Source: Micropruina sp. (lineage in GTDB: Bacteria > Actinomycetota > Actinomycetes > Propionibacteriales > Propionibacteriaceae). From it: 64,000 bases of DNA. Position numbers and translations under genes: made by a program. The notes beneath the pieces were generated by a model. The model was not told where the DNA came from. It saw only the letters and a list, made by a program, of their open reading frames with translations, and did not search any database. The stretch spans positions 397,388 to 461,387 of the forward strand of contig NZ_JASGID010000007.1 in NCBI RefSeq assembly GCF_047602085.1, written 5' to 3'. This document shows positions 11,188 to 30,639 of this stretch, one piece after another (the first letter of the stretch is position 1; each line of letters opens with the position of its first letter).

Positions 11188-11209
11188 TGTCGGTGCCGGA
11201 TGATTGCAT
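11188..11209 (+). promoter_or_regulatory. PafBC-type (RecA-NDp) promoter of adnAB, one mismatch
   Basis: TGTCGG-N10-TTGCAT; ATG 11216 lies 6 nt downstream (leaderless spacing). Confidence 0.55.
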
Positions 11210-11215
11210 GAGGGC

Positions 11216-14200
11216 ATGGAGCGAATCGGCGAGCTGCCCCCTTCGTGGGGGCTGAGTGGGCAGCAGCGTGCCGCCGTCGAGGGGTTCCGCAGCGGCCCGG
11301 TCCTGGTGGTCGGGCCGCCCGGCTCGGGCAAGACCACGGTGGTGGCGGCCGCGGCGGCCCTCGAACTCGGCTCCCGGCCCGTCGACGGTGCCGAGCCGCT
11401 GGTGCTCACCTTTTCGCGCCGGGCGGCCAGCGAACTGCGCAACACGGTGGCGCGGGCGATGAATCGCACGGTGAGCCCGCCGTGGGTCACCACCCTGCAC
11501 GCGTTCTGCCTGTGGCTGCTGCGGCTGGCGGCCGAGCCAGGGCAACCCGAGCCGCGGCTGCTCACCGCCCCCGAGCAGGAGTTCCGGGTGCGCGAACTGC
11601 TCACCGGACGGGGGGCCCTGGCCTGGCCGGCCGACACGCGGCAGGCGATCGGCACCCGGGCCTTCGCCCGCCAGGTGCGGGGGGCGATCGCGCGGGTGCG
11701 GCAACTGGGGCTCGACCCCGACGACGTGGTGGCGTTCGGCGCGGCAGCGGGGCGGCCCGAGTGGGTAAGTGCCGGGCATTTCTTCGCCGAGTATCTCGAT
11801 GTGCTCGATCACGAGGGCAGCCTCGACTACGCCGAACTGGTGCACCGGGCCCGCATCGCGCTGACCGACGCCGAACTCGTCCGAGTGGTGCGGGCCAGGG
11901 TCTCGCGGGTGATCGTCGACGAGTACGGCGAGCTTGACCCGGCCCAGATCGGCCTGCTGCGCGCGCTGGTGCCGACGGGCGGGCCGATTCTGGCCGTCGG
12001 TGACCCCGACCAGGTGGTGTTCCGGTTTCGCGGTGCCCACCCGCGGGCGCTGGCCGAGTTTGGCTCTACCTTCGCCACCGCAATGGGCGAGCCGGCGCCA
12101 GTGGTGGTGCTGCACGGCAGTCACCGGGCGAGCGCAGCGGTGGCGGACGCGGTCGGCCGGGTGGCACGTCGGCTGCCGCTGCCGGTGCTGGGTGACGAGG
12201 CGGCGTCCGCGCTGCGTCCGGTGCCGGTGGGTGGTCCGGCGCGAGGGGGCGAGCCGGGGCAGCGGGGCGAGCCAGGGTTGGGGGGTGTCTCGGGGCCGGG
12301 CAGCGAACCCGGGCCGCAGGTGCAGGCCGTGGTGTGCGCGTCGGAGTCGGAACAGGCCCAGTTGATCGCCGAACAGTTGCGCCGGGCGCACCTCGACGAC
12401 GGTTTCGAGCACGGCGACCTGGCCGTTCTGGTGCGTTCCGGTCGGCGCCAGATCGCCCCGATCGCGCGGGCCCTGGTGGCGGCGGGCATTCCGGTCGAAG
12501 TGGCCGGTGACGAGATTCCGCTGCTGGCCGAACCGGCGGTGCGGCCCCTGCTGCTGGCGCTGGAGGTGGTGCTGCGGGGTGCCGAACTCGACGCCGACGA
12601 GGCCAAACGCCTGCTCACCTCGCCGCTGGCCCAGCTCGACGCCGTGGGGCTGCGCAGTCTGGGCAGGCTGTTGCTCGACGCCGAGCGCGCGGCCACCGGG
12701 TCGGCCATCGTCGGCCGCTCACCCGGCCAGTTGATCGCCGACGCGCTCAGCGAACCCGAGCGGCTGGCCGGGCTGCCCGACACCCCCGAGGTGGGTGCGG
12801 TGCGGGCACTGGCGGGGCTGCTCGGGGCGGCGGGCCGCGCGCTGGCGGTGCCCGGTAACGGCGCCGCCGAGGTGCTGTGGACGCTGTGGTCGGGCACCGA
12901 CTGGGGGCAGCGGTTGCGGCGCTCCAGCCGTGACGGCGGCGAGGCCGGACGGCGGGCCGACCGCGACCTCGACGCGGTGATCGCGTTGTTCGCCGCCGCG
13001 GCGGCTACCGAGCAGCCGGCCGGAACGGGCGGTGTCCGGGGGTTTCTGGCCGAGGTGGCGGCGCAGGAGATTCCGGCCGACACCACGCGCGAGGCCGAGG
13101 TGCGCGGGCGCGGCGTCCGGTTGCTGACCGCGCATCGGGCCAAGGGCTTGGAGTGGGCCGTGGTGGTGGTGGCCGGCGTGCAAGAGGGCCTCTGGCCCGC
13201 GCCGGGCCAGGGCGGCGCGATTCTCGACCCGGGCGAGCTGGTCAGTGACGGCCTGATCGGCCGGCCCGATCTGCGCGAAAGCCTGGCCGATGAGCGCCGG
13301 CTGTTCCACCTGGCCTGCAGCCGGGCCAGGCAGCGGCTGATCGTCACCGCCGTGCAGGGCTCCGACGGCGAGGCCAACCAGCCGTCCCGGTTCATCGCCG
13401 AGCTGGGGGTGCCGGTCACCGAATACACGCCGAGCGCCCGCCCGCTCACCCTGCCCGCTCTGGTCGCCCAACTGCGCCGCCGGGCGACCAGCGTGGAGTG
13501 CTCGGCGGCGCTGCGCGAGGCGGCCGCGCTGCGCCTTGCCCGGCTGGCGGCGCTGACCGATGCCCACGGGCGTCCACTGGCGGCCGAAGCACAGCCGGCC
13601 CGTTGGTGGGGGCTGGCCGAACCCACCGGCGGGGCTCGTCCGGCGGCAGCACCGGTGCGGCTCAGCCCCTCGTCGCTCACCGCCCTGCTCACCTGCCCGC
13701 GCCAGCACTACCTGACCCGGCAGGTGCGCGCCGACCCGCCGCGCAACGCGAACGCGAGCCTGGGGTCGGTGATTCACGTGCTGGCCGAACACGCCCGCAA
13801 CGACGACCTGACCCTGGCCGAGCTGACCGATCAACTCGATGAGGTGTGGTCGCAGCTACCGTTTGACGCTGCCTGGCTGTCGCAGGCCGAGCGTGCCAAC
13901 GCCGAAGACGCGCTGGCCCGGTTCGTCAACTGGCAGCAGCACAACCTCCACGCCGACGTGCTCGGGGTAGAGGTTGCCTTCGACGTGCAACTCGACCTCG
14001 ACGGCACCCCGGTGCAACTTGTCGGCACTGTCGACCGGCTGGAGCGGGCAGCCGATGGACGGCTGCGGGTGGTCGACTTCAAGACCAATAAGCGCGCCAT
14101 CACGGCTGCCGCGGTCGCCGCTCACGAGCAGCTCGGGGTATACCAACTGGCCATCGAGGCAGGGGGCTTCGCCAGCCTGGCCGGGCCGGGGGCGAGCAGC

Positions 14201-14470
14201 GCCGGGGCGTCGCTGGTGTTTCTGCGGTTGCCGGCCGGCAACGATCTGGACGACTACCCGAAGGAGTACCACCAGGCGGCGCTCAGCGAGCGCCCGCACC
14301 TGGCCGACGACGACGCCGAACACCCCAGTTGGGTGCATGAGCGGCTGGCCCGCGCCGTGGCAATCGTGCGCCAGGGCAGCTACCCGGCCACCCCGGGCGC
14401 GGGCTGCGGCCACTGCCCGTTTCAGGCCAGTTGCCCCGCCAAGCCGTCCGGACGGCAGGTGGTCGGGTGA
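11216..14470 (+). CDS. adnA: AdnA ATP-dependent helicase-nuclease subunit
   Basis: UvrD-like GPPGSGKTT, VGDPDQ, LLTAHRAKGLEW, ERRLFHLACSRA; C-terminal PD-(D/E)xK nuclease (GTVDRL...VVDFKT, QLGVY) with Fe-S cysteines (TCPRQ...CGHCPFQASC). Confidence 0.9.
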   Translation: MERIGELPPSWGLSGQQRAAVEGFRSGPVLVVGPPGSGKTTVVAAAAALELGSRPVDGAEPLVLTFSRRAASELRNTVARAMNRTVSPPWVTTLHAFCLWLLRLAAEPGQPEPRLLTAPEQEFRVRELLTGRGALAWPADTRQAIGTRAFARQVRGAIARVRQLGLDPDDVVAFGAAAGRPEWVSAGHFFAEYLDVLDHEGSLDYAELVHRARIALTDAELVRVVRARVSRVIVDEYGELDPAQIGLLRALVPTGGPILAVGDPDQVVFRFRGAHPRALAEFGSTFATAMGEPAPVVVLHGSHRASAAVADAVGRVARRLPLPVLGDEAASALRPVPVGGPARGGEPGQRGEPGLGGVSGPGSEPGPQVQAVVCASESEQAQLIAEQLRRAHLDDGFEHGDLAVLVRSGRRQIAPIARALVAAGIPVEVAGDEIPLLAEPAVRPLLLALEVVLRGAELDADEAKRLLTSPLAQLDAVGLRSLGRLLLDAERAATGSAIVGRSPGQLIADALSEPERLAGLPDTPEVGAVRALAGLLGAAGRALAVPGNGAAEVLWTLWSGTDWGQRLRRSSRDGGEAGRRADRDLDAVIALFAAAAATEQPAGTGGVRGFLAEVAAQEIPADTTREAEVRGRGVRLLTAHRAKGLEWAVVVVAGVQEGLWPAPGQGGAILDPGELVSDGLIGRPDLRESLADERRLFHLACSRARQRLIVTAVQGSDGEANQPSRFIAELGVPVTEYTPSARPLTLPALVAQLRRRATSVECSAALREAAALRLARLAALTDAHGRPLAAEAQPARWWGLAEPTGGARPAAAPVRLSPSSLTALLTCPRQHYLTRQVRADPPRNANASLGSVIHVLAEHARNDDLTLAELTDQLDEVWSQLPFDAAWLSQAERANAEDALARFVNWQQHNLHADVLGVEVAFDVQLDLDGTPVQLVGTVDRLERAADGRLRVVDFKTNKRAITAAAVAAHEQLGVYQLAIEAGGFASLAGPGASSAGASLVFLRLPAGNDLDDYPKEYHQAALSERPHLADDDAEHPSWVHERLARAVAIVRQGSYPATPGAGCGHCPFQASCPAKPSGRQVVG

Positions 14471-17400
14471 GCGCCCTCACCGCACCCGAGCAGCTCAGCG
14501 AGGTGCTCGAACTGCCATTCTCAGACCAGCAACTGGCCGCCATCACGGCACCGCTGCAGCCCGGGGTGATCATCGCCGGCGCCGGCTCGGGTAAAACCAC
14601 GGTGATGGCGGCTCGGGTGGTGTGGCTGGTCGGCAGCGGTCAGGTCACCCCTGAACAGGTGCTCGGGCTCACCTTCACCCGCAAGGCCGCCGCCGAATTG
14701 TCGGGTCGGGTGCGCTCGGCGCTGCAGCGAGCCGGGGTGGTCGACACCGCCGGCGTCGACGAGGCCGGCGAGCAACTGGTGCTCACCTACGACGCGTTCG
14801 CCGCCCGGCTGGTCAGCGAGCACGGGCTGCGCATCGGGGTCGAGAGCGACCCGGTGATGATCACCGGGGCGTCGCGCTACCGGCTGGCCGCCCGGGTGGT
14901 CACCAACGCGGCGGGGCCGTTCGAGCACCTGTCGGGCTTCGTGCCGGCAACGCTGACCGAACGGCTGCTCAAGCTTGACGCCGAGCTCACCTCACATCTG
15001 GTGACGTCGCAACAGGTTGGTGCACACGCCAGGGACTATCTGTCGGCGCTCGCCGAGGCCCCGCTGAACCGGTCTGGGCGCGAATACGTCTCGGTGCGCG
15101 CGGCCCGCGCCACCGCCGAACAGCGTCTCGAACTGCTGGGCCTCGCCAGCGCCTACGCAGACCTCAAGCGCCGGCTCGGCTACGTGGAGTTCGCCGACCA
15201 GATGGCGGTGGCGGCGCGGCTCGCCGAACAGGTGCCGGCGGTCTCGGGGCTACTGCGGCAACAGTTTCGGGTGGTGCTCCTCGATGAGTACCAAGACACC
15301 TCGTCGGCCCAGGCCGCCCTGTTGCGGGCGTTGTTCTCGGGTCCGGACGCCGCGCACGGCCGCGGCCACGCGGTCACCGCGGTGGGCGACCCGCACCAGG
15401 CCATCTACGGCTGGCGCGGGGCCGCGGCCAGCAACATTCTGCAGTTCGCGCACGACTTTCCCACCGCCGAAGGACTGCCCGCGGCGGCGTTCGCGCTGAG
15501 CGTGAACCGGCGCTCGGGGCCGATGATTCTGGCCGCGGCCAACGATCTGGCTGCCGGGCTGCGGGCCGACCCCCTGCTGGGCGGCGAATCGCTGGAGCTG
15601 ACCGCGCCGCCCGGCACGCCGCCCGGAGCCGTCGAGGTGGCCTCGTTTCAGACCTGGCCTGACGAGGTGCGATTCATCGGCGAGCGCATCGTGGCGCTGC
15701 ACGATTCGGGCGGGGTCGCGTCCTGGGCCGACGTTGCGGTGCTGGTCAGACGCAATGCGCAGATTCCCGCGGTGTACGCCGACCTGCTGGCCCGCGACGT
15801 ACCGGTCGAGATCGTTGGGCTGGGTGGCCTGCTGGAGCTGCCCGAGATCGTCGAGGTCTGCTCGGTGCTGGCGTTGCTCGACGACGTGAGTGCCAACCCG
15901 GCTGCTGTGAGGCTGCTCACCTCGGCGCGCTGGGCGATCGGCATCGGCGACCTGGCCCTGCTCGGACGGCGCGCCGCCGACCTGGCGCGGCACGAGCCCG
16001 GGCCGCGGGCCGGCGACCTGGTGGACGATCTGGGTCGAGCGCTGTCGAGCACCGATGCGGTCGCCACACCCAGCCTGCTGGAGGCGCTGCACGACCCGGG
16101 CGACCTGCCCTACAGCGCCGCCGCCCGGGACCGATTCGGCCGGTTGGCGACAGAGCTTGCCGGCCTTCGGGGGCATGCCGGCGAGCCGGTGCTCGACCTG
16201 GTGCGGCGGGTGGTGGCCACCCTGGGGCTGGAGGCCGAGCTGGCTGCAGCGGGGTCGTCCGGGGCTCAACTGGGCGCCTTCACCGACGCCGTGGCCGCTT
16301 ACTGCGACGTGGACGGTGAGGCCTCCCTGGGCGGGCTGCTGGCCTATCTCGACGTGGAGCGGGAGCACGGCGTGGGCCTCGACCAAGCGGTGGCCACCGA
16401 CGCCGACTCGGTCAAGCTGCTGACGGTGCACCGCGCCAAGGGCCTGGAGTGGCAGGCGGTGTTTCTGCCTGGCATGGCCGAGAAGGTGTTCCCCAACGAC
16501 CGGGTGAGCGACAACTGGGTGACCAACGCCGGGGCGTTGCCGGCCGAACTGCGTGGCGACGCGAATGCGGTGCCGCAACTGGATGAGGTCTCCGACGCCG
16601 GGTTCAAGCAGCACGCCGCCGCCTTGAAACGGCAGGCGCGGCACGCCGAAGACCGGCTGGCCTACGTGGCGGTCACCCGGGCCAAGCGGTTGCTGGTGGC
16701 CAGCACCCACACCTGGGCAGGGGAGCTGACCACACCGCGAGTGCCGTCGCCCTACCTCAACGTGATCGCCCGGCAGGGCCGGGTGGTGGCCGAGGCGCCG
16801 CCGACCACCGGTGAGAACCCGCTGGCCGGGGCAGGTTCGGCGCTGGCCTGGCCGGTGCCGGGTGACCCCGAGCTGCGTGAGCGCCGGGCACGACTGGCGC
16901 AGCAGGTGCAGCATGCCGCCGAACTCCTGGTGCCGGTGGAGCCCCCCGGTCTGTCGCCCGACGAACGAGCCGAGGCGGCGCTCTGGGACGACGATCTGGA
17001 GCGGCTGGTCGCGGCGGCGGTCGACTCGGTGGCACCGGCGCGTCCGGCATACCTGTCGGCGACCGGGTTGGGGCGGCTGACCCGTGACCCGGACGGCTTT
17101 CTGGCCGAGTCGGGCCGTCCGATGCCGCAGCGTCCGGTGGCCGCCCAGCGCCTGGGCGCACGGTTTCACCGCTGGCTGGAGCAACGGTTCGCGCTGGCGC
17201 CGTCGCTCGACCTCGACCCGGGGCAGGAACCGCCTGACGACCCCCACTTCGCCAACCTCAGCGCGGCGTTCGAACGCGGCCAGTTCGCCACCCGCCGTCC
17301 GCTGGGCGTTGAGGTGCCGTTCAGCATGATGGTGGCCGGCACGATCGTGCGGGGCCGCATCGACGCCGTGTTCACCGACGGCGAGGGCTATCTGGTGGTC

Positions 17401-17610
17401 GACTGGAAGACCGGCGACGTGACCCGGGCCGATCCGATTCAGTTGGCCGTCTACCGCCAGGCCTGGGCCGAACTGGCAGGGGTACCGATGGAGCGGGTGC
17501 GGGCCGGGTTCTTCGACATCATCGCCGACCGGCTGGTGCTGCCGCCGGTGTTGCCGGCGGAATCGGAGTGGGCCAGCGCGGTGGGGCGGTTGAACAGATC
17601 CCGTAGCTGA
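14467..17610 (+). CDS. adnB: AdnB ATP-dependent helicase-nuclease subunit
   Basis: AGAGSGKT, LLDEYQDT, VGDPHQAIYGWRGA, LLTVHRAKGLEW, RLAYVAVTRAK, nuclease GRIDAVF...VDWKTG; GTG 14467 overlaps the adnA stop. Confidence 0.92.
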   Translation: MSALTAPEQLSEVLELPFSDQQLAAITAPLQPGVIIAGAGSGKTTVMAARVVWLVGSGQVTPEQVLGLTFTRKAAAELSGRVRSALQRAGVVDTAGVDEAGEQLVLTYDAFAARLVSEHGLRIGVESDPVMITGASRYRLAARVVTNAAGPFEHLSGFVPATLTERLLKLDAELTSHLVTSQQVGAHARDYLSALAEAPLNRSGREYVSVRAARATAEQRLELLGLASAYADLKRRLGYVEFADQMAVAARLAEQVPAVSGLLRQQFRVVLLDEYQDTSSAQAALLRALFSGPDAAHGRGHAVTAVGDPHQAIYGWRGAAASNILQFAHDFPTAEGLPAAAFALSVNRRSGPMILAAANDLAAGLRADPLLGGESLELTAPPGTPPGAVEVASFQTWPDEVRFIGERIVALHDSGGVASWADVAVLVRRNAQIPAVYADLLARDVPVEIVGLGGLLELPEIVEVCSVLALLDDVSANPAAVRLLTSARWAIGIGDLALLGRRAADLARHEPGPRAGDLVDDLGRALSSTDAVATPSLLEALHDPGDLPYSAAARDRFGRLATELAGLRGHAGEPVLDLVRRVVATLGLEAELAAAGSSGAQLGAFTDAVAAYCDVDGEASLGGLLAYLDVEREHGVGLDQAVATDADSVKLLTVHRAKGLEWQAVFLPGMAEKVFPNDRVSDNWVTNAGALPAELRGDANAVPQLDEVSDAGFKQHAAALKRQARHAEDRLAYVAVTRAKRLLVASTHTWAGELTTPRVPSPYLNVIARQGRVVAEAPPTTGENPLAGAGSALAWPVPGDPELRERRARLAQQVQHAAELLVPVEPPGLSPDERAEAALWDDDLERLVAAAVDSVAPARPAYLSATGLGRLTRDPDGFLAESGRPMPQRPVAAQRLGARFHRWLEQRFALAPSLDLDPGQEPPDDPHFANLSAAFERGQFATRRPLGVEVPFSMMVAGTIVRGRIDAVFTDGEGYLVVDWKTGDVTRADPIQLAVYRQAWAELAGVPMERVRAGFFDIIADRLVLPPVLPAESEWASAVGRLNRSRS

Positions 17611-17702
17611 GCGAACGCGGTGAAATAGCTTGCCACGGAGGTGTCGGTGAGACCCACGATCGTCGGCGTTTGCCTGGCGAGGCGCTGATCGCAACCACTG
17701 TT

Positions 17703-17910
17703 CGTTGAGCGTGTCGAAACCTCGCGCCGGGGACGTAGTTCTGGGGTCTCGACAGGCTCGACCGGCGGGGGTTCGTGTTGGTTGAGGGTGTCGAAACCTC
17801 GCGCCGGGGACGTAGTTCTGGGGTCGCGACAGGCTCGACCGGCGAGAATCGGCGCCTTTCCAGGCAAGCGCTGATCAACGCGACCAGCAGTGGTTTCGAC
17901 AAGCTCAACC
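17703..17910. repeat. REP cluster: two tandem inverted doublets (77-bp period) plus one singlet
   Basis: GTTGAGCGTGTCGAAACC-spacer-GGTCTCGACAGGCTCGACC unit seen twice (matching positions 17711 and 17788); GGTTTCGACAAGCTCAACC at 17892-17910. Confidence 0.88.
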
Positions 17911-19776
17911 GGGGGTGGGCGTGGTGATCAGCCGATCGCCATCTCGTCCGATGACCACGGCTAAGACGGCGTCACCGTAGGAATCCAGCTTCTTGGCCCC
18001 GACCCCGCTGATCGCGAACAGTTCGTCGGCGTTGGCCGGACGGTGCTGGGCGATCGCGGCGAGGGTGGCGTCGGGGAAGACCACATAGGCGGGGACGGCG
18101 GCGGCTCGGGCGGTCTCGGCACGCCAGGTACGGAGGCGTTCGAAGAGCTCGCGGTCCTCCGCACTCAATTCGGTCGCGGCCGCGGGCCCCTTGGTGGCCG
18201 CCGACGCCGTCCGTTTCCGGGTCGAGCCGGCCCGGACGACCGCGTCCTCGCGCAGCGGCACCGGGCGCTCGCCGCGCAGCACCGGCCACGAAGCGTCGGT
18301 GATCTCGAGCGTGTGGTGCCCGTCGGGGGAGACCGCCAGGACGCCGGCGGCCAGCAGTTGGCGGATGACCGCCCGCCATTGCAGGTCGGTGAGTTCGGTG
18401 CCGATGCCGAAGGTGCTCAACTGGTCGTGCCGCCATTGTTCGACGCGGGTGGTGCGCCGGCCGTGCAAGATGTCGATCAACTGGCCGGCGCCGAAGCGCT
18501 GGTTGCGTTCCCGCTTCAGCCGCACCACGGTCGAGAGCAGCTTCTGCGCGGCCACCGTGCCGTCCCACGGGGTGGGCGGGTTCAGGCAGGTGTCGCAATT
18601 GCCGCAGGGTTCGCTGGGTTCGCCGAAGTAGTCGAGCATCAACTGGCGTCGGCAGCGCAAGGTCTCGCACAGGCCGAGCATCGCCTCGAGGTGCTGTCCG
18701 AGCTGGCGCTTATGGGCGGCGTCCCCTTCGGAGCGGTCGATCATCTGGCGCTGCTGCACGACGTCGGCCAGCCCGTAGGCCATCCAGGCCGTCGCTGGCA
18801 GCCCGTCGCGGCCGGCCCGTCCGGTTTCTTGGTAATAGCCCTCGATGCTGCGCGGCAGGTCGAGGTGCGCGACGAACCGGACGTCCGGCTTGTCGATACC
18901 CATGCCGAAGGCGATGGTCGCCACCATCACGACGCCGTCCTCGCGCAGGAACCGCGACTGGTTCGCAGAGCGCACGCCGGCCGGCAGCCCGGCGTGGTAC
19001 GGCAGAGCGTCGATTCCCTGTTTGACCAGGGACTCCGCGGTGGCTTCGACCGACTTGCGACTGAGGCAGTAGACGATGCCGGAGTCCCCGTCGTGCTCGG
19101 AGCGGATCAGCGTCAGCAACTGCTTCAGCGGTTGCTGTTTGGGTTCGATCCGGTAGGAGATGTTCGGACGATCGAAGCTGGCGACGAAGGTGCGGGCCTG
19201 CTGCAGACCGAGCCGTTCGGCGATCTCGCGTCGGGTGGACGGTGTTGCGGTCGCGGTGAGGGCGATCCGCGGCACGTCGGGCCACCGCTGCCCGAGCACC
19301 GACAGCTTGAGGTATTCGGGGCGGAAGTCGTGCCCCCACTGCGACACGCAGTGCGCCTCGTCGATGGCGAACACCGACAGCGTCAGCCGATCGAGGAACT
19401 CCTGGGTTCGGGCCAGGTCGAGGCGTTCGGGTGCCAGGTAGAGCAGGTCGAGTTCGCCAGCGGTCGCCTGCTGCTCGGTGAGCCGTTGCAGGTCGTAGTT
19501 CTGGCTCGAGTTGAGAAACCCGGCCCGCACGCCGACGTTCTCCAGGGCGGTCACCTGGTCGTGCATCAGTGCGATCAGCGGCGAGATCACCACACCGACA
19601 CCGGGCCGCACCATCGCCGGAATCTGGTAGCACAGCGACTTGCCGCCGCCGGTGGGCATCAGCACGATCGCGTCACCGCCGCCGGCGACATGGTCGATGA
19701 TGGCGCCCTGCTCGCCACGGAAGTCGTCGTACCCGAACGTGGTGCGCAGCACGTCCAGCGGCAACAGGTCAGGCAC
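17905..19776 (-). CDS. recQ: ATP-dependent DNA helicase RecQ
   Basis: [62 protein letters not shown], Zn motif CRRQ...CGNCDTC, HRDC domain. Start GTG 19776 (or ATG 19785). Confidence 0.95.
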
Positions 19777-19783
19777 GTGACTC

Positions 19784-20016: not shown

Positions 20017-20060
20017 AACTGTGTCGGCGTCGGGAGGTACCGATCAGCGCACCCACCGCT

Positions 20061-21466: not shown

Positions 21467-21486
21467 GAAGCCGCCGATTCTTCGTC

Positions 21487-21976: not shown

Positions 21977-23737
21977 TCACAACCGCTCCCGCAGCCCCGA
22001 CGCCCGGCGTGCCGTCCGCTCCACGGCGGCTGCGAGTGAGTCCGGCGTCCCGATCAGGTGGACGGCGTCGCGGGCTCGGGTGACTGCGGTGTACAGCAAC
22101 TCACGAGTGAGCAGCGGAGAGCTGACCGGCGGCACCACCAGCGTCACCTCGGCGAACTGGCTGCCCTGCGACTTGTGCACGGTGAGGGCGTCCACCGACT
22201 GGGTGGGGCCGAGCAGGTCGGGGCTGAGCGCCTTGTCCACTCGTCCGGCGAAGTGCACGACCGGGCGTCCGGAGTCGAGCAGCACCACGCCGGTGTCGCC
22301 GTTCCACAGCCCCCAGTCGGACTGGTTGGACGTCACCAGCAGCGCCCGTCCGGCATACCATTCGCCCTCGGCGCCGAACCCGGCCACGGACGCCCGCAGC
22401 CAGTACTCGACCTGACGTGCCCAGGTGGTGGCGCCGAACGGGCCGTGCCGGTGGGCGCAGAGCAACCGGTGCCGCTCGAGCAGGTCGAGCGCGGACGCCG
22501 CGTCCCCGGCCACTGCCGCGGAATGGATGGCCCGGCCGGTGTGCACCACGCGGGCGCGCAGGGCGTCTTGGGGCTGGGCGGGATCGGTGAGGGTCAGGTG
22601 CGGATCGCCTGCGGCCACCAGGTCGAGGACGGCGTCGGCATCGCCGTCGCGGACCGCGGTCGCCAGTTGCCCCAGGACGCCCGCGAAGCGGTAGTTGCGG
22701 TTCAATCGGACCACAGGGCTGGCCCCGCCGGTGCCCTGCCAGCCGGCCCGGGTCAGGTCGGCGAGCACGGCTCCTGCGGAGACCGAGCTGAGCTGGTCGG
22801 GGTCGCCGACGAGCACCAGCCGGGTGGCCGGCCCGAGCGCGTCGACCAACTGCGCCATCTGGGTGAGCGACACCATGGACAGCTCGTCGACGATCACCGC
22901 GTCGTGCGGGAGTGGATTGGCGGCGTTGAACCGGGGCGTGGCGCGCCGCCGCGGCGTCCAACCGATCAGGCGATGTACCGTCGAGGCGCTGAGCGTGGTG
23001 ATCCAGGCCGCCACATCGGCGGGCAGGTGCTCGGCCGCCTCGCGCAGCGCCTCGTCCATCCGGGCGGCCGCCTTGCCGGTGGGTGCGGCGAGCGCGATCC
23101 GGCGCACCCCCTGACGGAACAGCAGGGCGAGCATCCGGGCGATGGTCGTGGTCTTGCCGGTGCCGGGTCCGCCGGCCAGCACCGTGACGCCGGAGCCGGC
23201 CAGGTGCGCGGCGGCGCGGCGCTGGTCGGGGTCGGCCTGGGCGCCGAACAACTCGTCAAGGACGACATCGAGCGACTGGTTGCCGGGGCCGGGGCTGGTC
23301 GGGGTGGCCAGGGTGCGTTCGATCAGGGCGATGCGGACCCGTTCTTCCTGCTCCCAGTACCGAGTCAGGTAAAGCCGCTCGCCCACCAGCCGGGCCGGGC
23401 GCCGCAGGTCACCGTCCGGATCGCGCGCGACCAGCGGGCTGGCCTGCAGCGCCGCGCGCCAATCGGCCTGGGCGGGCCAGAGCTCGTCGGGAACCTCAAC
23501 CAGTTCGTCGTCGCGTCCGGTGACGGTGCTGCGCACCCGGTCGAGTTCGAGGCAGACCGAACCCGCCCGCAACGCCCGGACGGCGAGCGCGAGGGCAAGT
23601 TGAACCCGTTGATCGGACTCGCCGTACAGCAGCGACCAGTGCCGCACGGGGTGCAGATCGGCCCAGTCCAAGACGCCGAGGGCGTGGAATTTGCCGACCA
23701 GTCCGTCGGCGACCACCGACAGTTCCGGATCACGCAT
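21977..23737 (-). CDS. recD: Exodeoxyribonuclease V alpha subunit
   Basis: GGPGTGKTTT, LAAPTGKAAAR, STVHRLIG, VIVDELSMV, LVGDPDQL, ALTVHKSQGSQF, RELLYTAVTRAR. Confidence 0.95.
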   Translation of the reverse strand: MRDPELSVVADGLVGKFHALGVLDWADLHPVRHWSLLYGESDQRVQLALALAVRALRAGSVCLELDRVRSTVTGRDDELVEVPDELWPAQADWRAALQASPLVARDPDGDLRRPARLVGERLYLTRYWEQEERVRIALIERTLATPTSPGPGNQSLDVVLDELFGAQADPDQRRAAAHLAGSGVTVLAGGPGTGKTTTIARMLALLFRQGVRRIALAAPTGKAAARMDEALREAAEHLPADVAAWITTLSASTVHRLIGWTPRRRATPRFNAANPLPHDAVIVDELSMVSLTQMAQLVDALGPATRLVLVGDPDQLSSVSAGAVLADLTRAGWQGTGGASPVVRLNRNYRFAGVLGQLATAVRDGDADAVLDLVAAGDPHLTLTDPAQPQDALRARVVHTGRAIHSAAVAGDAASALDLLERHRLLCAHRHGPFGATTWARQVEYWLRASVAGFGAEGEWYAGRALLVTSNQSDWGLWNGDTGVVLLDSGRPVVHFAGRVDKALSPDLLGPTQSVDALTVHKSQGSQFAEVTLVVPPVSSPLLTRELLYTAVTRARDAVHLIGTPDSLAAAVERTARRASGLRERL

Positions 23738-26700
23738 CGGCCGCACCTCCGCCCAGCAGCCGGGACAGTCCGGTGACCAGGGCGGCGGGGGGGTGCCACG
23801 CGAACACCCCGGTATCGGGTCCGGCCTCGGCCCCGCCCATGCCCCGGACGAACAAGTACAGCACCCCGCCGAGGTGCCGCTCCGGGTCGTAGCCGGCCAG
23901 CCGTCCGGCCAGGAAGCGGTGCAGGGCGACGCAGTACAGCAACGCCTGCAACGGGTAGTGGCTGGCGCACATCGCGGCCGCCATCGGGCCCTGCGCGTAG
24001 TGGCCGAGGGTCAGGTCGTCGCCGCCGAGCCGGTTGGTCTTGTAGTCGACCACCAGGAACCGGGGGTGCTCGGTGCTCCCGACCCGCAGCACCGCGTCGA
24101 TGCTGCCGGTCAGGAAACCCCGTAACCGCTGGCCCGACAACGCCGGATCGGCCAGCAGCGCGGGGTAGCCGACCAGCGGATCCGCGGGCGGCAGGTGCCG
24201 GCGGATCAGCCCTGCGACATCGCCCAGGGTGAGTGTTCGCGCGGGTTCCATCGGCAGGTCGAAGGCGAGTTCGGCGAGCCGGTCGGCCAGCGGCAACTCA
24301 GCCAGGCTGCGTCCCTCGGCCAACGAGCCGAGCGGGGTCGCGAATGCGGGCAGCAACGACTCAGCTAGTTGGTCGGCCTCGACCCCGGGCAGCGGAAACC
24401 GGGGCAGCCACTCGGTGGCGGCGCGGGCCAGGTTGGCGCGCAACGTGCCGACATCCATCCCGGGGTCGACGTGCTCGAACAGGGCGTGCACCAAGGTGCC
24501 GAATTGGGTGCCGCCGGGCAGATCGCGCATCGGGGACGGCGCGGCGGACGACCCGGACGGAGTCGCGCCTTGGGGTTCCTCCGGCTCGTCGAGCAACAGC
24601 GGGGCGTCGTGGTGAACGCCGACGGTCAGGCCCGAGTACGACGTTCGGCGCCAGTCGGTATCGATCGGGCGATCGAAGCTCCGGGCGCGCAGTTCGGTGC
24701 GCTCGGGCCCCACCACAGGCTCGGACGGGCGGGTGTGCGGCTCGATCGGGCGCACCACGATGCCGGGCGCGTTCCGCACCCATGCCAGTTCGGCGGGCGA
24801 GAGCGTGCCGGGCGGAGTGTCCAGTGCATAGCGGGCGGCGGGCACGGACGGCTCCACGGTCCGAGCCCGGTACAGCACCCGCTGCAGCGCCGAGTCGGCG
24901 GTCTGCTCGGTGCGCGCCCACCAGGCCCGCACCTGGCAGCGGGCCCGGGTGAAGGCCACGTACAGCAGCCGCAACTCCTCCTCGTCGGCTTCGAGTTGCG
25001 CCTGGCGGTAACGCTCGACGCGACCGGCTGCGTCCGCGCCGCCCAGGTCGACCAATGCCCGCCCGTCGTCATCGTGGAACAGCAACGCGCCGCCGTTGTC
25101 GCCACTGGAACCGAACGGCTTCCACAGATCGGGCAGCAGCACGATCGGGTACTGCAAACCCTTGGCGCGATGCACCGTCTTCACCTGGACGGCACGCGAG
25201 TCGGTCTCTAGCCGGCGGGTCCGTTCGCTTTCGGCCGCCGGCCGTTTCAATTGTTCGGCGAGCCATTGCGCCAGCCAGGTCGCGTTGGGCCGTTGACGCC
25301 CAGACGCCGCATGCAGCAGCTCGGCGACGTGCCGGAAGTCGGTCATCAACCGCTCGCCGTCGGGCCGGGCCAGCACCCGGTCGATGAACCCGGTCTCGGC
25401 GCCGATGGCGGCGAACAGAGCCGCCACCCCCGCACTGTGCAGGATGCGATCCCACTGCCGCAGGATTGCCGTCCAGCCGGCCACCTGCTGTTCGTCCGCG
25501 CTGGCCAGGTCGGCCAGCGATGCCTCGAAGAAGGCGGTCCGAACAGCCTTGCGCAGATCGCCGCGCCACCCGCTGGCCAAGGCCCGCAGCAATAACAACC
25601 AGTCCGTGGCTGCGGGCGTGGAGAAGATGCTTTCGGCGCCGCTCAGCGCGACCGGGATGCCTCGCGCACGCAGCGCGTCGGCCACCCGTTGGGCGGTCGG
25701 ATTGGTGCGCACCAAGACCGCGATGTCACCCGGATCAACGGGGCGCCATGCCTTGTCGCCGGCCAGTTTCTCACCCGGATCAGCGTCATCGAAAAGGTGA
25801 TGATCCTGCAGCAATGCAGACACGTGGACGGCGACGTCGGCGACGATCTGGTCACGGGCCTGAGTCCACTTCTGTGGCTGGTCGATGGTGGTCAACAGCA
25901 CCGGTGCGACGTCGCTGTCGCCGTGCCGCAACCCGCAGGCGGGCCGGTCGGCGCGCACCGGGCGAACGTCGATGCCGTCGCCGAGCCGCAGCCCGTCGAA
26001 CAGCGTGCCCAGCGCGTCGACCAGGGCCGCGTCGCTGCGGTAGTTACGGCTCAGCCCGAAGCGCTCAGTGGCCCCGCGGGCAGCCCGCAGATAGGCCTGC
26101 ACGTCGGCCCCGCGGAAAGTGTAGATCGCTTGTTTCGGGTCACCGATCAGCACCATCGGACGGTGCCCGTCGAACAGCCGCCGCAGGATGTCCCACTGCA
26201 CCGGGTCGGTGTCTTGGAATTCGTCCACAAGGACGTAGTCGACCGTTGCGCGCAGTCGTTGGCATGACTGTGCGCCGGTGACCGGGTCAGCGAGCGCAGT
26301 GCTCAGCCGGAGCAACTGGTCGTCGAAGGTGAGCACACCCAGCCGATGCCGGCGCTCGCTCGACACCCGCCGCACCTGCTCAGCGAACCGAATCCGCTCC
26401 GCGGCCGAATTGGGCGCGCTGGTCGGGACGATGGTCCGTAGCGCGTTCTCGACGGCGTCCCGGGCGAGCCGGTCGGCGCCGTTCTGTTCGCGCCATTGAT
26501 CGCGATCGGTCAGCGGCATGGGCGGACGCCGCTCGGCGAAGGCATAGCGCCGCAGGTACTCGTCGACGGCGACCTCACGCACCAGCGGACGCAGGTCGGG
26601 CAGCGGGGTGCCGGACGGATCACCGGTTGCCAACACTCCGAGCCGGGCATACAACGCCTGGCAGAACTCGTGAATGGTCATCACGGCCGCCGCGTCGAAG

Positions 26701-26978
26701 CCGGCGATGGCCCGGCCGAGGTTCGCCCGGACGTCCGGATCGTCGCTGTCGCGGGCAGCGCGAAGCAGATGCTCGCGGACCCGGGAACGAAGCTCGCGGG
26801 TGGCGTCGCGGCCGAAGGTGACCAGCAGCAGCCGCTCGATCGTGGTGCCACCCGAACCCAGTAGCTGCACGGCCAGATCGGCGATGGCATGCGTTTTGCC
26901 GGTGCCGGCGGACGCCTCGAGCACGGTGGTTGCGCTGCCCAGCGGACGGTTCGGGTCGAAGTCGTCGAAGCGCTCCAT
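23730..26978 (-). CDS. recB: Exodeoxyribonuclease V beta subunit
   Basis: EASAGTGKT, VLVDEFQDTD, IGDPKQAIYTFRGAD, TVHRAKGLQY, RLLYVAFTRA; nuclease GFLTGSIDAV...VVDYKTN, HYPLQALLY. Confidence 0.95.
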   Translation of the reverse strand: MERFDDFDPNRPLGSATTVLEASAGTGKTHAIADLAVQLLGSGGTTIERLLLVTFGRDATRELRSRVREHLLRAARDSDDPDVRANLGRAIAGFDAAAVMTIHEFCQALYARLGVLATGDPSGTPLPDLRPLVREVAVDEYLRRYAFAERRPPMPLTDRDQWREQNGADRLARDAVENALRTIVPTSAPNSAAERIRFAEQVRRVSSERRHRLGVLTFDDQLLRLSTALADPVTGAQSCQRLRATVDYVLVDEFQDTDPVQWDILRRLFDGHRPMVLIGDPKQAIYTFRGADVQAYLRAARGATERFGLSRNYRSDAALVDALGTLFDGLRLGDGIDVRPVRADRPACGLRHGDSDVAPVLLTTIDQPQKWTQARDQIVADVAVHVSALLQDHHLFDDADPGEKLAGDKAWRPVDPGDIAVLVRTNPTAQRVADALRARGIPVALSGAESIFSTPAATDWLLLLRALASGWRGDLRKAVRTAFFEASLADLASADEQQVAGWTAILRQWDRILHSAGVAALFAAIGAETGFIDRVLARPDGERLMTDFRHVAELLHAASGRQRPNATWLAQWLAEQLKRPAAESERTRRLETDSRAVQVKTVHRAKGLQYPIVLLPDLWKPFGSSGDNGGALLFHDDDGRALVDLGGADAAGRVERYRQAQLEADEEELRLLYVAFTRARCQVRAWWARTEQTADSALQRVLYRARTVEPSVPAARYALDTPPGTLSPAELAWVRNAPGIVVRPIEPHTRPSEPVVGPERTELRARSFDRPIDTDWRRTSYSGLTVGVHHDAPLLLDEPEEPQGATPSGSSAAPSPMRDLPGGTQFGTLVHALFEHVDPGMDVGTLRANLARAATEWLPRFPLPGVEADQLAESLLPAFATPLGSLAEGRSLAELPLADRLAELAFDLPMEPARTLTLGDVAGLIRRHLPPADPLVGYPALLADPALSGQRLRGFLTGSIDAVLRVGSTEHPRFLVVDYKTNRLGGDDLTLGHYAQGPMAAAMCASHYPLQALLYCVALHRFLAGRLAGYDPERHLGGVLYLFVRGMGGAEAGPDTGVFAWHPPAALVTGLSRLLGGGAADA

Positions 26979-29900
26979 CAGCGCACCTCATGATCGGTCA
27001 GCGGCTGCCAGATCAGCCGGGCGGCGGCGCAGGCCAGCACGGTCTCGCCGGGTTGGTCGAGATCGTCGGAGCCGATGCCGACGCTCAACAAGTCGTCGAC
27101 GGTGGGGTAGAACATCGGCCACGTCTCGTCGCCCCAGGTGCGGTATGCCTTGCCGAGGTCGGTCAGCTCACCGAACGGGTCCTTGCCGTCGGCGAGCAGT
27201 TCGGCCAGTCGGGCGCCGAACTGGGCCGGAACCGGGAGCGGGGTGTCCAGGCCCAGCCGGTACAACCGCACCCAACGATCGAGCAACACCCGGGCCATTT
27301 CGGGTTCGGGGCCTCGCAGCCGCAATGTCCAGCTTCTGGCCACGACCGCCGCCCGCCACGACTGCCCGGTGGCGGCGGTCAGGGCGATCAGCCGCAGCCA
27401 ACTGCCCAGCCGATGCTTGGCACTCAGCTTGGAATAGGTGGCGTCGACGATCACATCCTGTTGCGTCGATACCCGCCCGGTCAGCCGGACGGGGCCGCAG
27501 TCGATGACCAGGTCGTGGTGCACGACGGGGACGCCCGCCGGAACCGGCAGGTTGCCCATGATTCGGCCAACGGTCGTGGCGATGCCCGCGAGCAGGCGAT
27601 TGCCGAGTTCACCGGGCGGTACCTGGCCACGCAGCCATTCGGCCCGCACGGCGTCGTCGCGGCTGTGGCCCTCGCGGGCGAGGCGGAGCATCCGGTCGCC
27701 GACCGCCCACTGCGCCAAGCCGTCCAGTTCGATCGGCACCTCTTCGCCTGGTTCCTCCGGCTCGCCGAGACTCAGATCGCAGCGGACCCGCAGATAATGC
27801 CTCACCGGGTCGGAGGCTAGGGCGATCAGGTCGTCGAGGGTCACCTCGGTAAGCGGGCCGGCCGGGGGGAGGACGGTGTCGGTGCGTACCTCCCGGCGCG
27901 GGCCGAGCAGGGCGCGCGCGCCGCGCAAGCCTGACGGGTCGTAGCTGACCGGTTCGGCCCCGCCTGCCCCGAACAGGTGCGGACTGAACGGCTGCAGCGG
28001 ATGCTGGCGTGGCATCACCCCGCCCTCGGCGAGCACGTCAAGCAGGTCGGCGAGCGCGGCCGGCGGCGGCACCTTCTCGTTGCTCAGCGCCGAGCGACCC
28101 TGATGCACCACGACCAGGGCCTGTCGAGCTGCGCCCACGGCGTCGGCCAGTGCCTGACGGTCTTCTGCGACCGGATCGGGCTCACCAGGCCGGGGCTCGC
28201 GCAGCATGAGATCGTCGCCGTCACGCTCACCACGGGCGGGGAAGACCCCGTCGTCGAGGCCGATCAGGCAGATCACGCGGTAGGGCACGCCACGCAGGGA
28301 GCGCAGCGAACAGACAGTGAGGGCACCGTTGCCGAAGGTTGAACGGGCTGAGCCCCGCTCGAACTCGTCGACGGCCAGTGCGTTCAGGTCGGCCAGGCTC
28401 AGCACGGCATCCCCGGCGCCGCGTTCGGCGAGTTCGGCCAGCCGGGCCTGGGCGTCGGTGCGCTGCCAGGCGGTGTCACCCTTGGTCAGGGTGAAGTCGT
28501 CCACGGCCTGTTGCAGCCGTTGCACCCAGCCGGCGAGGGTGGTCGGGGCGGCTGACGCGGCGGCGAACAGCCCGAGCCGGGCGAGCAGTTCGGCCAGGCC
28601 GCCCAGGCCGTCCAGGTCGCGATCCTCGACGTCGTGCAGCGGCAGGGTGGTGCCGACCACCGGGAGCCGGTCCTCACTGAGTGCGACCCCGAGCAGCATG
28701 CGTTGCAGGCCGGCCATCCAGGTGTTCTGCCGCAGGCTGCCCAGCCCGTAGCGCTGGCGGTGCTGTGCCGACAGCCCCCAGCGCACCCCGGACTCGATTG
28801 CCAACTGGCCGAGCCGCTTAAGGGTGTCTGGATCGAATCCGAAGCGAGCGGCCACCGCTGGCTGGCCGCACAGGTCGAGCACCTCGGCGGCGGTGGCGCG
28901 CGATTCGACCAGGCCCAGCAGCCGGACGATGATGCCGAGCAGCGGGTTGGTGTCGGCCGAACTGCGGTCGGCCACCTGCACCCGGAAGTCGTTGGCGGGG
29001 TGCCGTCCGGGCACCTCGGACGGCAGCCGGAAGGCTGCGGTGACCAGCGGCGCCGCAGCAGCCAGGTTGGCGCACCCGACCACGATGTGTCGGGGTTCGA
29101 GGCTGCGATCGGAGGCCAGCAGCCCGGTGATGGCGTCGCGCAGAATCTCGACCTGTCGCTCCAGCCCGTGGCCGGCGTGCACCTGAACGCTGCCGTCCGG
29201 TGCCGGCGGGGGCTCCTGCCGTCCGGTCAGGCGGGATTGCAGCCAGCCCAGCGTGCCGGGCGGTTGAACGGTTCCGGCCAGCAGTTCGTCGCGGGCCAGG
29301 GGCAGCAGGCCGCGCTGCGCGCCGCACTCAAAGGCACTCAGCCGAGCGGCTGGGTCGTCGGGCAGCGGCGCCGGCCAGGACGCGGCGGTCACCTGCCGCA
29401 GCGACACGTGGACGTCGCGGTGCTCGGCGAGCGCTGACAGGATCTGCACCCACCATGGCGATAGTGGGTCGGGTTGCACGAACGACACCGACCCGGGCAG
29501 CGCAAGCCGTTGCGGCCGTTGGCGCAGGTCGGTCAGGAAGGCGTCACGTTCGGCCAGCGGGTCCGCCTCGGCGGCGAGCAGCCGCCACAACACCGGCTGC
29601 CAACCGTCGACGCCCAGCGGCCGGCCCTGTTCGTCGCAGTCGTCACCGGCGCGCCACCGGGCGATCAGGTCGGGCCGCCACTCCAGGTACCGTTCGAACA
29701 GCCGGGCGATCCGGCGAGCGACCCGGTACCCATCGCGGGAGTTGCCCAGATGCCGCCGCAACTGGGCCAACTCAGCAACGTCGGACCGGGTTTCGATCAC
29801 GGCCAGCAGCCGCCAGGTCAGGTGGCGGGCGCGCCAGAGCGCGAGCGGTTCGCCCAGATCGCGCAGCAGGCGTGCGGGGGTGACGAAATCGACGCCGGCG

Positions 29901-30088
29901 CAGATGCCTTCACCGGGGCTTCCCAGACGGTGGGCCAACTCGTTGGTGAGCCAGCGGCGCAGGTGCGCGTGTGGCGTTACCACCAGGTCGGTGGCGAACG
30001 GGTCGGTGCGGACGCCACCCAGCCGCGACGCCAGTTCGGCGGCCAGGGCGGAGGCGTCGTCGCTGCGATGAAGAATCAGTCCGGTCAT
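26978..30088 (-). CDS. recC: Exodeoxyribonuclease V gamma subunit
   Basis: DPFATDLVV, WLTNELA, VQVHAGHG.ERQVEILRD, RGVPYRVICLIGLDDGVFP, QHPLQPFS; coupled to recB. Confidence 0.93.
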   Translation of the reverse strand: MTGLILHRSDDASALAAELASRLGGVRTDPFATDLVVTPHAHLRRWLTNELAHRLGSPGEGICAGVDFVTPARLLRDLGEPLALWRARHLTWRLLAVIETRSDVAELAQLRRHLGNSRDGYRVARRIARLFERYLEWRPDLIARWRAGDDCDEQGRPLGVDGWQPVLWRLLAAEADPLAERDAFLTDLRQRPQRLALPGSVSFVQPDPLSPWWVQILSALAEHRDVHVSLRQVTAASWPAPLPDDPAARLSAFECGAQRGLLPLARDELLAGTVQPPGTLGWLQSRLTGRQEPPPAPDGSVQVHAGHGLERQVEILRDAITGLLASDRSLEPRHIVVGCANLAAAAPLVTAAFRLPSEVPGRHPANDFRVQVADRSSADTNPLLGIIVRLLGLVESRATAAEVLDLCGQPAVAARFGFDPDTLKRLGQLAIESGVRWGLSAQHRQRYGLGSLRQNTWMAGLQRMLLGVALSEDRLPVVGTTLPLHDVEDRDLDGLGGLAELLARLGLFAAASAAPTTLAGWVQRLQQAVDDFTLTKGDTAWQRTDAQARLAELAERGAGDAVLSLADLNALAVDEFERGSARSTFGNGALTVCSLRSLRGVPYRVICLIGLDDGVFPARGERDGDDLMLREPRPGEPDPVAEDRQALADAVGAARQALVVVHQGRSALSNEKVPPPAALADLLDVLAEGGVMPRQHPLQPFSPHLFGAGGAEPVSYDPSGLRGARALLGPRREVRTDTVLPPAGPLTEVTLDDLIALASDPVRHYLRVRCDLSLGEPEEPGEEVPIELDGLAQWAVGDRMLRLAREGHSRDDAVRAEWLRGQVPPGELGNRLLAGIATTVGRIMGNLPVPAGVPVVHHDLVIDCGPVRLTGRVSTQQDVIVDATYSKLSAKHRLGSWLRLIALTAATGQSWRAAVVARSWTLRLRGPEPEMARVLLDRWVRLYRLGLDTPLPVPAQFGARLAELLADGKDPFGELTDLGKAYRTWGDETWPMFYPTVDDLLSVGIGSDDLDQPGETVLACAAARLIWQPLTDHEVR

Positions 30089-30098
30089 GCTGGGCAAC

Positions 30099-30120
30099 AC
30101 CCTAGGGGGCTGCTCCGACA
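30099..30120 (-). promoter_or_regulatory. PafBC-type promoter of recCBD, perfect match
   Basis: TGTCGG (30120-30115)-N10-TAGGGT (30104-30099); ATG 10 nt downstream. Confidence 0.7.
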
Positions 30121-30135
30121 GTTTTCGTCGAGCCT

Positions 30136-30393
30136 TCAGCGCGCCCGCAGTGCGTCGATCAACAAGACTCCGAAACCGGCCACGACGACGCCGCTACTGA
30201 AGGCGGCGTTGCCCGACATGACGAGGGCGAGGATGCCGGCGATCACCAGCGCGACACCGATCAGCCCGACCACCGAAACGCGGATGCCGCCGGGGCCGCG
30301 CCAGGCGGTCGCGCGCGCGAATGGAGACGACCCGGGCGTCGCCTCGTCGCTGGCATGGGCAGGGCCGGCATCGGTGTTCGACGGTTGTTCCAT
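30136..30393 (-). CDS. Small membrane protein (2 TM)
   Basis: 85 aa with two hydrophobic segments; SD-like GAGG upstream. Confidence 0.65.
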   Translation of the reverse strand: MEQPSNTDAGPAHASDEATPGSSPFARATAWRGPGGIRVSVVGLIGVALVIAGILALVMSGNAAFSSGVVVAGFGVLLIDALRAR

Positions 30394-30445
30394 GGTGATC
30401 CCTCGGGAGGTCGGCTTGCGTCCGCATGATAGTGAATCCCAGAAG

Positions 30446-30551
30446 CGGCCGGGGGTCTCGACAGGCTCGACCAGCGGGTATCGGCCGGGGGTTTCGACGG
30501 GCTCGACCAGCGGGTATCGGCCGGGGGTTTCGACGGGCTCGACCAGCGGGT
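30446..30551. repeat. Tandem REP array, 3 x 36 bp
   Basis: CGGCCGGGGGT(C/T)TCGAC(A/G)GGCTCGACCAGCGGGTAT starting at 30446, 30482 and 30518. Confidence 0.92.
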
Positions 30552-30617
30552 GCCGAACGGGTTTGATCAGGCTCGGCCGGCGAGCGGCACCGGCTTGCCC
30601 CGCGGCGGTTCACCGAG

Positions 30618-30639
30618 TGTCCGGGCCGGGTTCTACAGT
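30618..30639 (+). promoter_or_regulatory. PafBC-type promoter of uvrD2, one mismatch
   Basis: TGTCCG-N10-TACAGT; in-frame GTG 30647 lies 7 nt downstream. Confidence 0.62.

Follow-up and report, generated by a model that had tools for sequence, protein, structure and literature searches.

Which signal governs the helicase and nuclease genes gathered in one stretch of the genome of a Micropruina species (contig NZ_JASGID010000007.1, positions 397,388 to 461,387 of the forward strand)? We refer to this stretch of 64,000 nucleotides (nt) as the window, and all positions below are counted from its first letter. A preliminary description had proposed that all four of its helicase/nuclease transcription units, those of adnA, recQ, recC and uvrD2, carry a promoter of the type used by the activator PafBC, also known as a RecA-independent promoter (RecA-NDp). 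Indeed, we find the bipartite motif at each of these units and also at a fifth, and we consider it likely that the five units, with nine genes in 24 kb, would respond to DNA damage as a co-activated, LexA-independent group through PafBC promoters.

Five bipartite promoters in 24 kb

The PafBC promoter consensus is tGTCgg(N10)tA(N3)T, with an element at −26 in place of a −35 element (PMC8635444). Pattern searches located the four sites at the positions first described, each with a spacing of N10 and 6–10 nt before a start codon. The adnA promoter (11188-11209, plus strand; TGTCGG-TGCCGGATGA-TTGCAT) consists of the −26 element TGTCGG at 11188-11193, a 10-nt spacer that ends in an extended −10 TG at 11201-11202, and the −10 hexamer TTGCAT at 11204-11209, 6 nt before the ATG at 11216. 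The recQ promoter (19805-19784, minus strand; TGTCGG-CGCTGGCCCC-TACCAT) ends 7 nt before a GTG at 19776, the recC promoter (30120-30099, minus strand; TGTCGG-AGCAGCCCCC-TAGGGT) 10 nt before an ATG at 30088, and the uvrD2 promoter (30618-30639, plus strand; TGTCCG-GGCCGGGTTC-TACAGT) 7 nt before a GTG at 30647. The fifth site, which the account of ‘all four units’ had missed, lies at 35510-35531 on the plus strand (TGTCAG-TGCCCACGAT-TACGCT), 7 nt before the ATG at 35539 of a gene for a SprT/YgjP-like metallopeptidase.

The GTC of the −26 element is present at all five sites (three TGTCGG, one TGTCCG and one TGTCAG), as are the N10 spacing and the correct orientation with respect to the gene. Both TGTCAG and TGTCAC are documented variants in M. 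tuberculosis (PMC8151990), and distances of 6–9 nt to the start are common among the PafBC promoters listed for M. tuberculosis, for example at adnA, lhr, radA, ligB and holB (PMC8151990 Table S7). The hexamer is TANNNT at four of the five sites. Thus, at the level of sequence the PafBC-type assignment stands for consensus, orientation and distance, with the reservation that the −10 of adnA departs from TANNNT. It stands also for the missing −35 element: a consensus scan of 17000-36900 found no sigma-70-type −35/−10 promoter, and inspection by eye upstream of the −26 elements (for adnA at 11188, by eye only) found no TTGACA-like element 16–18 nt from the hexamer.

In a genome with 70% G+C, the sites might be chance matches, and the looser searches offer some room for this explanation. 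GTC-N12-TANNNT, the loosest of the patterns, shows no enrichment (5 matches versus 3.6 expected), and the relaxed pattern, which yields 4 matches versus 0.62 expected in the window, reached at least 4 matches in 1 of 100 shuffles. More specific searches speak against chance. The strict pattern gives 2 matches versus 0.08 expected in the 64 kb, and when the spacer of TGTCVN-Nx-TANNNT was varied from 4 to 17 nt, there were 4 matches at x = 10 and 0–1 at any other length. We also scored the window with a weight matrix trained solely on sites from other genomes, which is therefore independent of the sites in the window. The five best scores in the 64 kb are the five sites, at 23.7 (adnA), 19.9 (uvrD2), 19.3 (recC), 18.7 (recQ) and 15.5 bits (SprT-like gene), while the sixth, at 12.4 bits, is intragenic; at a threshold of at least 17 bits there are 4 matches, versus 0.1 in shuffled sequence. 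Moreover, only about 0.2% of strand positions lie 6–10 nt before a conserved start, and by our own arithmetic the probability that five of five sites would do so is approximately 1e-13.

Other genes of the window lack the motif. We scored 250 nt before each of 27 further genes, among them nudC, telA, SRAP, the small open reading frame (ORF) at 21641, the M16 peptidases and a gene for an extracytoplasmic function (ECF) sigma factor, and no score there exceeds 10.4 bits; thus the negative controls of the preliminary description hold; for nudC, telA, SRAP and the 21641 gene they do so without qualification. The M16 gene also scores at most 10.4 bits, but a degenerate form of the motif is present there, at 44858-44879 on the minus strand (TGTCAG-N10-GCGGGT; 3.9 bits), 8 nt before the ATG at 44849. 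Since orthologues of this M16 peptidase gene in two Pseudonocardia loci (L045 and L054) have perfect sites, TGTCGG-N10-TAGTGT and TAGGGT, 7 nt from the start, the site in the window may be a decayed remnant.

Three further motif-like matches were set aside. One (11118-11139, minus strand; TGTCGC-ACGAGTGTGA-CAGGGT) lies 89 nt before the cold-shock gene csp (10810-11028), in the divergent intergenic region between csp and adnA; it scores 10.4 bits, which is under the chance threshold, its TGTCGC is kept in the closest relatives only, and it is probably just part of the csp promoter or 5′ untranslated region. A second (60230-60251, minus strand; TGTCAG-N10-TTAAGT) scores 7.8 bits, overlaps a good TATAGT hexamer and is not of the PafBC type; it precedes a previously unlisted WhiB-family gene (59907-60155, minus strand; MDWRHRAACL...) with a leader of ∼74 nt. 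The third, a weak match at 58121-58141 on the plus strand, was rejected as not significant or intragenic.

Genes, start codons and conservation of the sites

The identities given to the genes hold, based on NCBIfam and Protein Data Bank (PDB) matches and on the C-terminal translation of UvrD2. The adnA gene (11216-14470, plus strand) has its best matches in chain A of 6PPJ, 6PPR and 7SJR (E 1e-105), structures of M. smegmatis AdnAB, and in NCBIfam models of UvrD/AddA type. Its N-terminus is kept in relatives, and its ATG lies 6 nt after the −10, which implies a leaderless message. The second gene of the unit, adnB (14431-17610, plus strand), overlaps the end of adnA and has no promoter of its own. 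The pair has the makeup of AdnAB, namely two adjacent subunits of ∼1050 residues, each with a UvrD-like motor and a C-terminal RecB-type nuclease, with matches to AddA, AddB and the Cas4 nuclease region. The identity of NudC likewise comes from an NCBIfam match. The recCBD unit (21977-30088, minus strand) comprises recC (26978-30088), recB (23730-26978) and recD (21977-23746), with overlapping stop and start codons; in NCBIfam, recD scores 452 bits (cut-off 310), and recB (630.5; cut-off 696) and recC (563; cut-off 582.9) fall just under their cut-offs but are full-length and syntenic.

The preliminary description had moved the starts of recQ and uvrD2 to leaderless GTG codons, and this is borne out by conservation and by models that align from residues 7–8. 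For recQ (17905-19776, minus strand), TIGR01389 matches with 768.9 bits (cut-off 640.2), and position 3 of the model is aligned from residue 8. The start is the GTG at 19776 and not the ORF-maximal GTG at 19989; the intervening 71-codon extension is not conserved, and its G+C content at second codon positions is 0.63, compared to 0.43 in the gene. The uvrD2 gene (30647-32788, plus strand) encodes a superfamily 1 helicase with a CxxC...HxxC motif and a C-terminal HRDC domain, as residues 611-681 match the HRDC region of recQ; the PcrA/UvrD models align from residue 7. Its GTG at 30647 and the N-terminus MP[D/E]..LLAALDPEQ are kept, the GTG in six relatives (L006, L013 and L082-L085), while an ATG two codons upstream, at 30641, is not conserved and would begin 1 nt after the hexamer. 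The fifth gene (35539-36069, plus strand), with a leaderless ATG, encodes a protein of 176 residues with the HExxH motif HELTHL, which matches PF01863 (E 3.8e-21) and PF10263 (E 1.2e-7; 31.9 bits, cut-off 25.6), and for which a PDB sequence search gave no match. Given its resemblance to SprT, the protein may be a DNA-protein-crosslink protease, which would then be under damage control. Thus, the start codons of three genes, recQ, uvrD2 and the SprT-like gene, are corrected, all to leaderless positions.

We compared the window with loci from relatives (designated L with a number) and scanned 835 kb of related loci for the motif. Orthologous promoters in Micropruina, Propionicimonas and Nocardioides retain the TGTC and the −10 although their spacers differ, and this contrast is seen at recC, uvrD2, adnA, recQ and the SprT-like gene. 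At recC, the form TGTC[C/A/G]N-N10-TA[A/G/C][G/A]GT stands 7–11 nt before the ATG in ten loci (L006, L013, L015-L017, L021 and L082-L085), which span Micropruina, Propionicimonas and one more distant locus. At uvrD2, TGTCNN-N10-TA[C/A/G][A/G/T][G/C]T is found in Micropruina, Propionicimonas, Nocardioides and Marmoricola, and it was not detected in the Demequina, Microbacterium, Kineococcus, Pseudonocardia or Stackebrandtia loci. At recQ, CGTCGG-N10-TACGAT or TACCAT, followed by an identical 7 nt and GTG, is found in L008 and L012. The SprT-like gene has TGTC[G/A/C][G/C]-N10-TA[G/C][G/T][G/C]T, with a variable spacer, 6–7 nt before its ATG in nine metagenomic relatives (L081-L089; 71–83% protein identity). 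No motif was found before the orthologues of nudC (43), adnB (25 loci), recB, recD or ABC1. Because orthologous positions keep the sites, chance is already refuted as an explanation, and we give it virtually no weight.

If the motif were as frequent upstream of random genes, its presence at the repair genes would mean little, but this is not what we found, either at the 27 other genes of the window or in the 835 kb of relatives. There, TGTCNN-N10-TANNNT occurs 55 times, and an ORF begins 4–14 nt downstream of 41 of the 55 matches; in the majority of cases it is that of uvrD2, recC, the SprT-like gene or adnA, which argues that the motif is not common before random genes. The remaining 14 matches are close to the ∼15 that we estimate would occur by chance. 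Separately, we noted perfect sites (TGTC[G/A]G-AGCGGCCGCG-TA[G/C]TGT) in three Micropruina metagenome-assembled genomes (MAGs), at L003 13959, L004 15159 and L012 13102, all on the minus strand and 6–7 nt before a gene whose N-terminus, MPIAPSPHAGMGAV...VTFRVWAPNA, by eye resembles that of a glucan-branching or -debranching enzyme. Such an enzyme, if correctly identified, would not have been expected among the targets in a genus that accumulates glycogen.

The same comparison bears on a second explanation, that the sites are constitutive SigA promoters of leaderless genes, in which TGTC is a conserved upstream element or a relic and no activation by damage occurs. An extended −10 TGn can free a promoter from the need for a −35 element, and the adnA promoter has one. 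The TGTC, however, keeps its distance of exactly N10 in different genera although the spacer sequence changes, it is found almost solely before DNA-repair genes (and at none of the 27 other genes of the window), and the scan of 17000-36900 yielded no −35 element that could otherwise support transcription. We therefore regard constitutive promoters as improbable.

The adnA promoter and the candidate regulator

We propose that the five sites are PafBC-dependent promoters, in which a −26 TGTCnn with an invariant GTC lies exactly 10 nt before a −10 element for SigA and a −35 element is lacking. PafBC, a heterodimer with WYL domains that is activated by single-stranded DNA (PMC11804915), would act as in mycobacteria, inserting between the DNA and region 4 of sigma and thereby allowing the housekeeping RNA polymerase (RNAP-SigA) to initiate there, a mode termed ‘sigma adaptation’. 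With transcription predicted to start 6–7 nt after the −10, the adnAB, recQ, uvrD2 and SprT-like mRNAs would be leaderless, and the recCBD mRNA would have a leader of ∼3 nt and thus would not be strictly leaderless. In mycobacteria, cryo-electron microscopy and chromatin immunoprecipitation sequencing (ChIP-seq) assign this bipartite motif to PafBC (PMC8635444). Both AdnAB and RecBCD are members of the PafBC regulon of M. smegmatis (PMC8223512; for AdnAB also PMC8682763), and M. smegmatis cells deleted for pafBC contain less RecQ, RecB and neighboring ABC1 protein (PMC5656591). The DNA-reading residues of PafB and the GTC triplet are reported to be conserved across Actinobacteria, including one species of the Propionibacteriales; the legend of Figure 3 of PMC8635444 places P. 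freudenreichii in the alignments of the PafB helix-turn-helix (HTH)-B domain and of the recA promoter motif. By taxonomy, Propionibacterium freudenreichii belongs to the same order as Micropruina.

Several observations weigh against PafBC control of all five units. First, there is no A at −11 in TTGCAT, the adnA hexamer, which hence is not TANNNT. Second, in seven Micropruina relatives (L003, L005, L007, L008, L009, L012 and L019), the −26 element of adnA is TGTGGG instead of TGTCGG, while the rest of the promoter (GTGATTCGAT, 6–7 nt, ATG) is unchanged in this sub-clade, the one exception to GTC among the orthologous sites; since TGTGGG breaks the GTC triplet that is read by R46 and R50 of PafB (PMC8635444), the conservation of the block is not due to PafB contacts alone. 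Third, uvrD2, Rv3198c, SprT and K07043 do not appear in the readable part of the curated M. tuberculosis list (PMC8151990 Table S7), and recC and recB show no induction in the raw M. tuberculosis table. Fourth, Pfam scans of ∼40 ORFs of the window found no WYL-domain or pafBC gene in the 64 kb. A regular-expression search for WYL motifs across all 160 loci of the comparison and the window also returned no candidates.

The first of these points is met by precedent. In 14 orthologous adnA promoters from Micropruina, Propionicimonas and Nocardioides, the hexamer reads T-N-N-N-[A/G]-T, with the extended −10 TGn before it in every case. In Table S7 of PMC8151990, M. tuberculosis adnA (Rv3202c) has TGTCAG-ACCCTCGTGA-TGTCAT, 7 nt from the start, and is entered as a PafBC candidate that is strongly induced in a PafBC-dependent manner; it shares with the window (TGTCGG-TGCCGGATGA-TTGCAT) an architecture in which a non-canonical hexamer follows TGn. 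Furthermore, adnA serves as the reference transcript for PafBC dependence in both M. smegmatis and M. tuberculosis, and in the latter its expression is abolished without pafC or pafBC (PMC8682763). Thus, the least canonical of the five sites has the best experimental precedent, and comparison of the promoters indicates that the weak −10 with TGn is an ancient arrangement that is common to M. tuberculosis.

A third alternative is that the motif is read in this lineage by a regulator other than PafBC, such as a ClgR-like protein or another WYL activator, in which case the regulon would have a different controller and perhaps respond to a different signal. No pafBC gene is among the window ORFs, TGTGGG is tolerated at adnA in some Micropruina despite the broken PafB contact, Actinobacteria have many WYL regulators (PMC6789036), and ClgR is reported to recognize the RecA-independent promoter, in work cited in PMC5656591. 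On the other side, the mycobacterial structures and ChIP-seq tie this exact motif to PafBC, M. tuberculosis adnA, with the same architecture, is genetically dependent on pafBC, and the reported conservation of the PafB DNA-reading residues and of GTC extends to a Propionibacteriales species. We consider a different controller unlikely, and infer instead that PafBC is present in this organism and that damage would induce these genes.

Nor is there a sign of LexA: no SOS box was found near the five promoters, and GAAC-N4-GTTC, with one mismatch allowed, occurs 23 times in the window versus 19 expected, which is at the level of chance; the sole exact match is inside the ABC1 gene. The LexA/RecA SOS response resembles the system proposed here in that repair genes are expressed after damage, and some mycobacterial genes carry both signals, but it differs in that a repressor is released at a palindromic SOS box.

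Ancestry of the locus and known systems

The closest reference loci, centered on NudC, are those of Micropruina species (64–75% protein identity), followed by Propionicimonas, Nocardioides and Marmoricola, and Micropruina belongs to the order Propionibacteriales (NCBI taxonomy); this agrees with the earlier view that the host is a non-mycobacterial actinobacterium. Loci of the Nocardioides type have the gene order adnA-adnB-nudC-uvrD2, which is also that of M. tuberculosis (Rv3202c to Rv3198c). In Micropruina and Propionicimonas, recD-recB-recC is inserted between nudC and uvrD2, whereas recQ is found in the locus, among those compared, only in the window, L008 and L012, and at a different position in each.

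The segments of the window differ in their nearest relatives. The recQ and recD/recB regions (17953-19804 and 21977-24541) are 86–88% identical in DNA and 88–92% in protein to the Micropruina MAG L008, such that recQ and recBCD together are 86–92% identical to it, while adnAB with nudC (10809-17555) is 73–77% identical to L008 and closest to M. glycogenica L002 (81–83%). The DNA homology of recQ to L008 and L012 (87.5%) stops at 19804/19807, which is the 5′ edge of the −26 element; upstream of the promoter the three recQ genes are unrelated, and from the −26 element on their layout is identical. A repeat dispersed through intergenic regions, often arranged as tandem units of ∼31–36 nt, has TCGAC[A/G]GGCTCGACC as its core and 30 matches in the window versus 0.5 expected, with copies for example at 17749-17910, 20061-20075, 21487-21501, 30458-30544, 36128-36281 and 59645-59800. 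Copies of this repeat, which resembles repetitive extragenic palindromic (REP) sequences, are found on both sides of recQ, in the interval from recC to uvrD2 and downstream of the SprT-like gene.

We read recQ as a possible travelling cassette because its homology ends at the edge of the motif, its position differs between genomes and REP-like repeats flank it. The pattern suggests, as a hypothesis, that repair genes may move between lineages together with their own PafBC promoters. Tentatively, and with less confidence than we place in the promoters, promoter-equipped repair genes may have entered an ancestral adnAB-nudC-uvrD2 locus and so enlarged the PafBC regulon of this lineage, with recQ as such a cassette and with uvrD2 and the SprT-like protease as members specific to the Propionibacteriales.

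Other features of the locus also vary. In the window, the −26 elements of recC and uvrD2 are ∼500 bp apart, with an ORF for a 66-residue membrane protein (30194-30393) and three copies of the repeat between them. In two Propionicimonas loci, by comparison, the two divergent genes are separated by a minimal intergenic region, in which these elements face away from each other and their 5′ ends are 5 bp apart (L016 19762-19767 and L017 19925-19930). A 3.2-kb segment at 7610-10808, with genes for an Rce1-like CAAX protease, a HisKA_3 histidine kinase and a LuxR-type response regulator, is missing from all Micropruina relatives compared, in which telA adjoins the cold-shock gene directly. A search with Rfam found one tRNA only.

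The promoters of the window share with mycobacterial PafBC promoters the bipartite motif and its N10 spacing, likewise have no −35 element and lie at the same short distance from the start (6–9 nt in mycobacteria), and AdnAB, RecBCD and RecQ are linked to PafBC in M. smegmatis. They differ in belonging to the Propionibacteriales, in lying five within 24 kb and in being known here from sequence alone. Given ∼75 motifs in the 4.4 Mb of M. tuberculosis (PMC8151990), this is, by our own arithmetic, an unusual density. In the window, unlike in M. tuberculosis, recCBD and recQ lie inside the adnAB-nudC-uvrD2 locus, and uvrD2 and the SprT/YgjP-like gene carry the motif, neither of them being found in the readable portion of the curated M. 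tuberculosis list; on that partial view, the two genes are possible lineage-specific recruits. In Streptomyces, RecA-NDp motifs likewise precede damage-inducible genes and are kept among orthologues, but the targets are others, the macrodomain gene SCO6735 and recA, and for SCO6735 induction by ultraviolet light has been shown (PMC5087735). Finally, DriD of Caulobacter and other WYL activators of the damage response are also switched by single-stranded DNA and independent of SOS (PMC9186387, PMC11804915), but they have a different DNA target and a different contact with RNA polymerase, so that the likeness is one of logic only.

Two claims of novelty in the preliminary description must be tempered. 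The recQ motif is real and conserved, but the drop of RecQ in the M. smegmatis pafBC mutant means that a place for RecQ inside the PafBC regulon is not new, and a setting outside mycobacteria is not new either, as the motif, known since 2004, extends to other Actinobacteria (PMC8223512) and has been applied in Streptomyces (PMC5087735). What we describe is a known kind of regulation in a new lineage, and no new mechanism. As read from the DNA, it would extend a mycobacterial damage-response circuit to a wastewater-associated lineage of the Propionibacteriales, and it nominates uvrD2 and the SprT/YgjP-like metallopeptidase as candidate PafBC targets in model actinobacteria.

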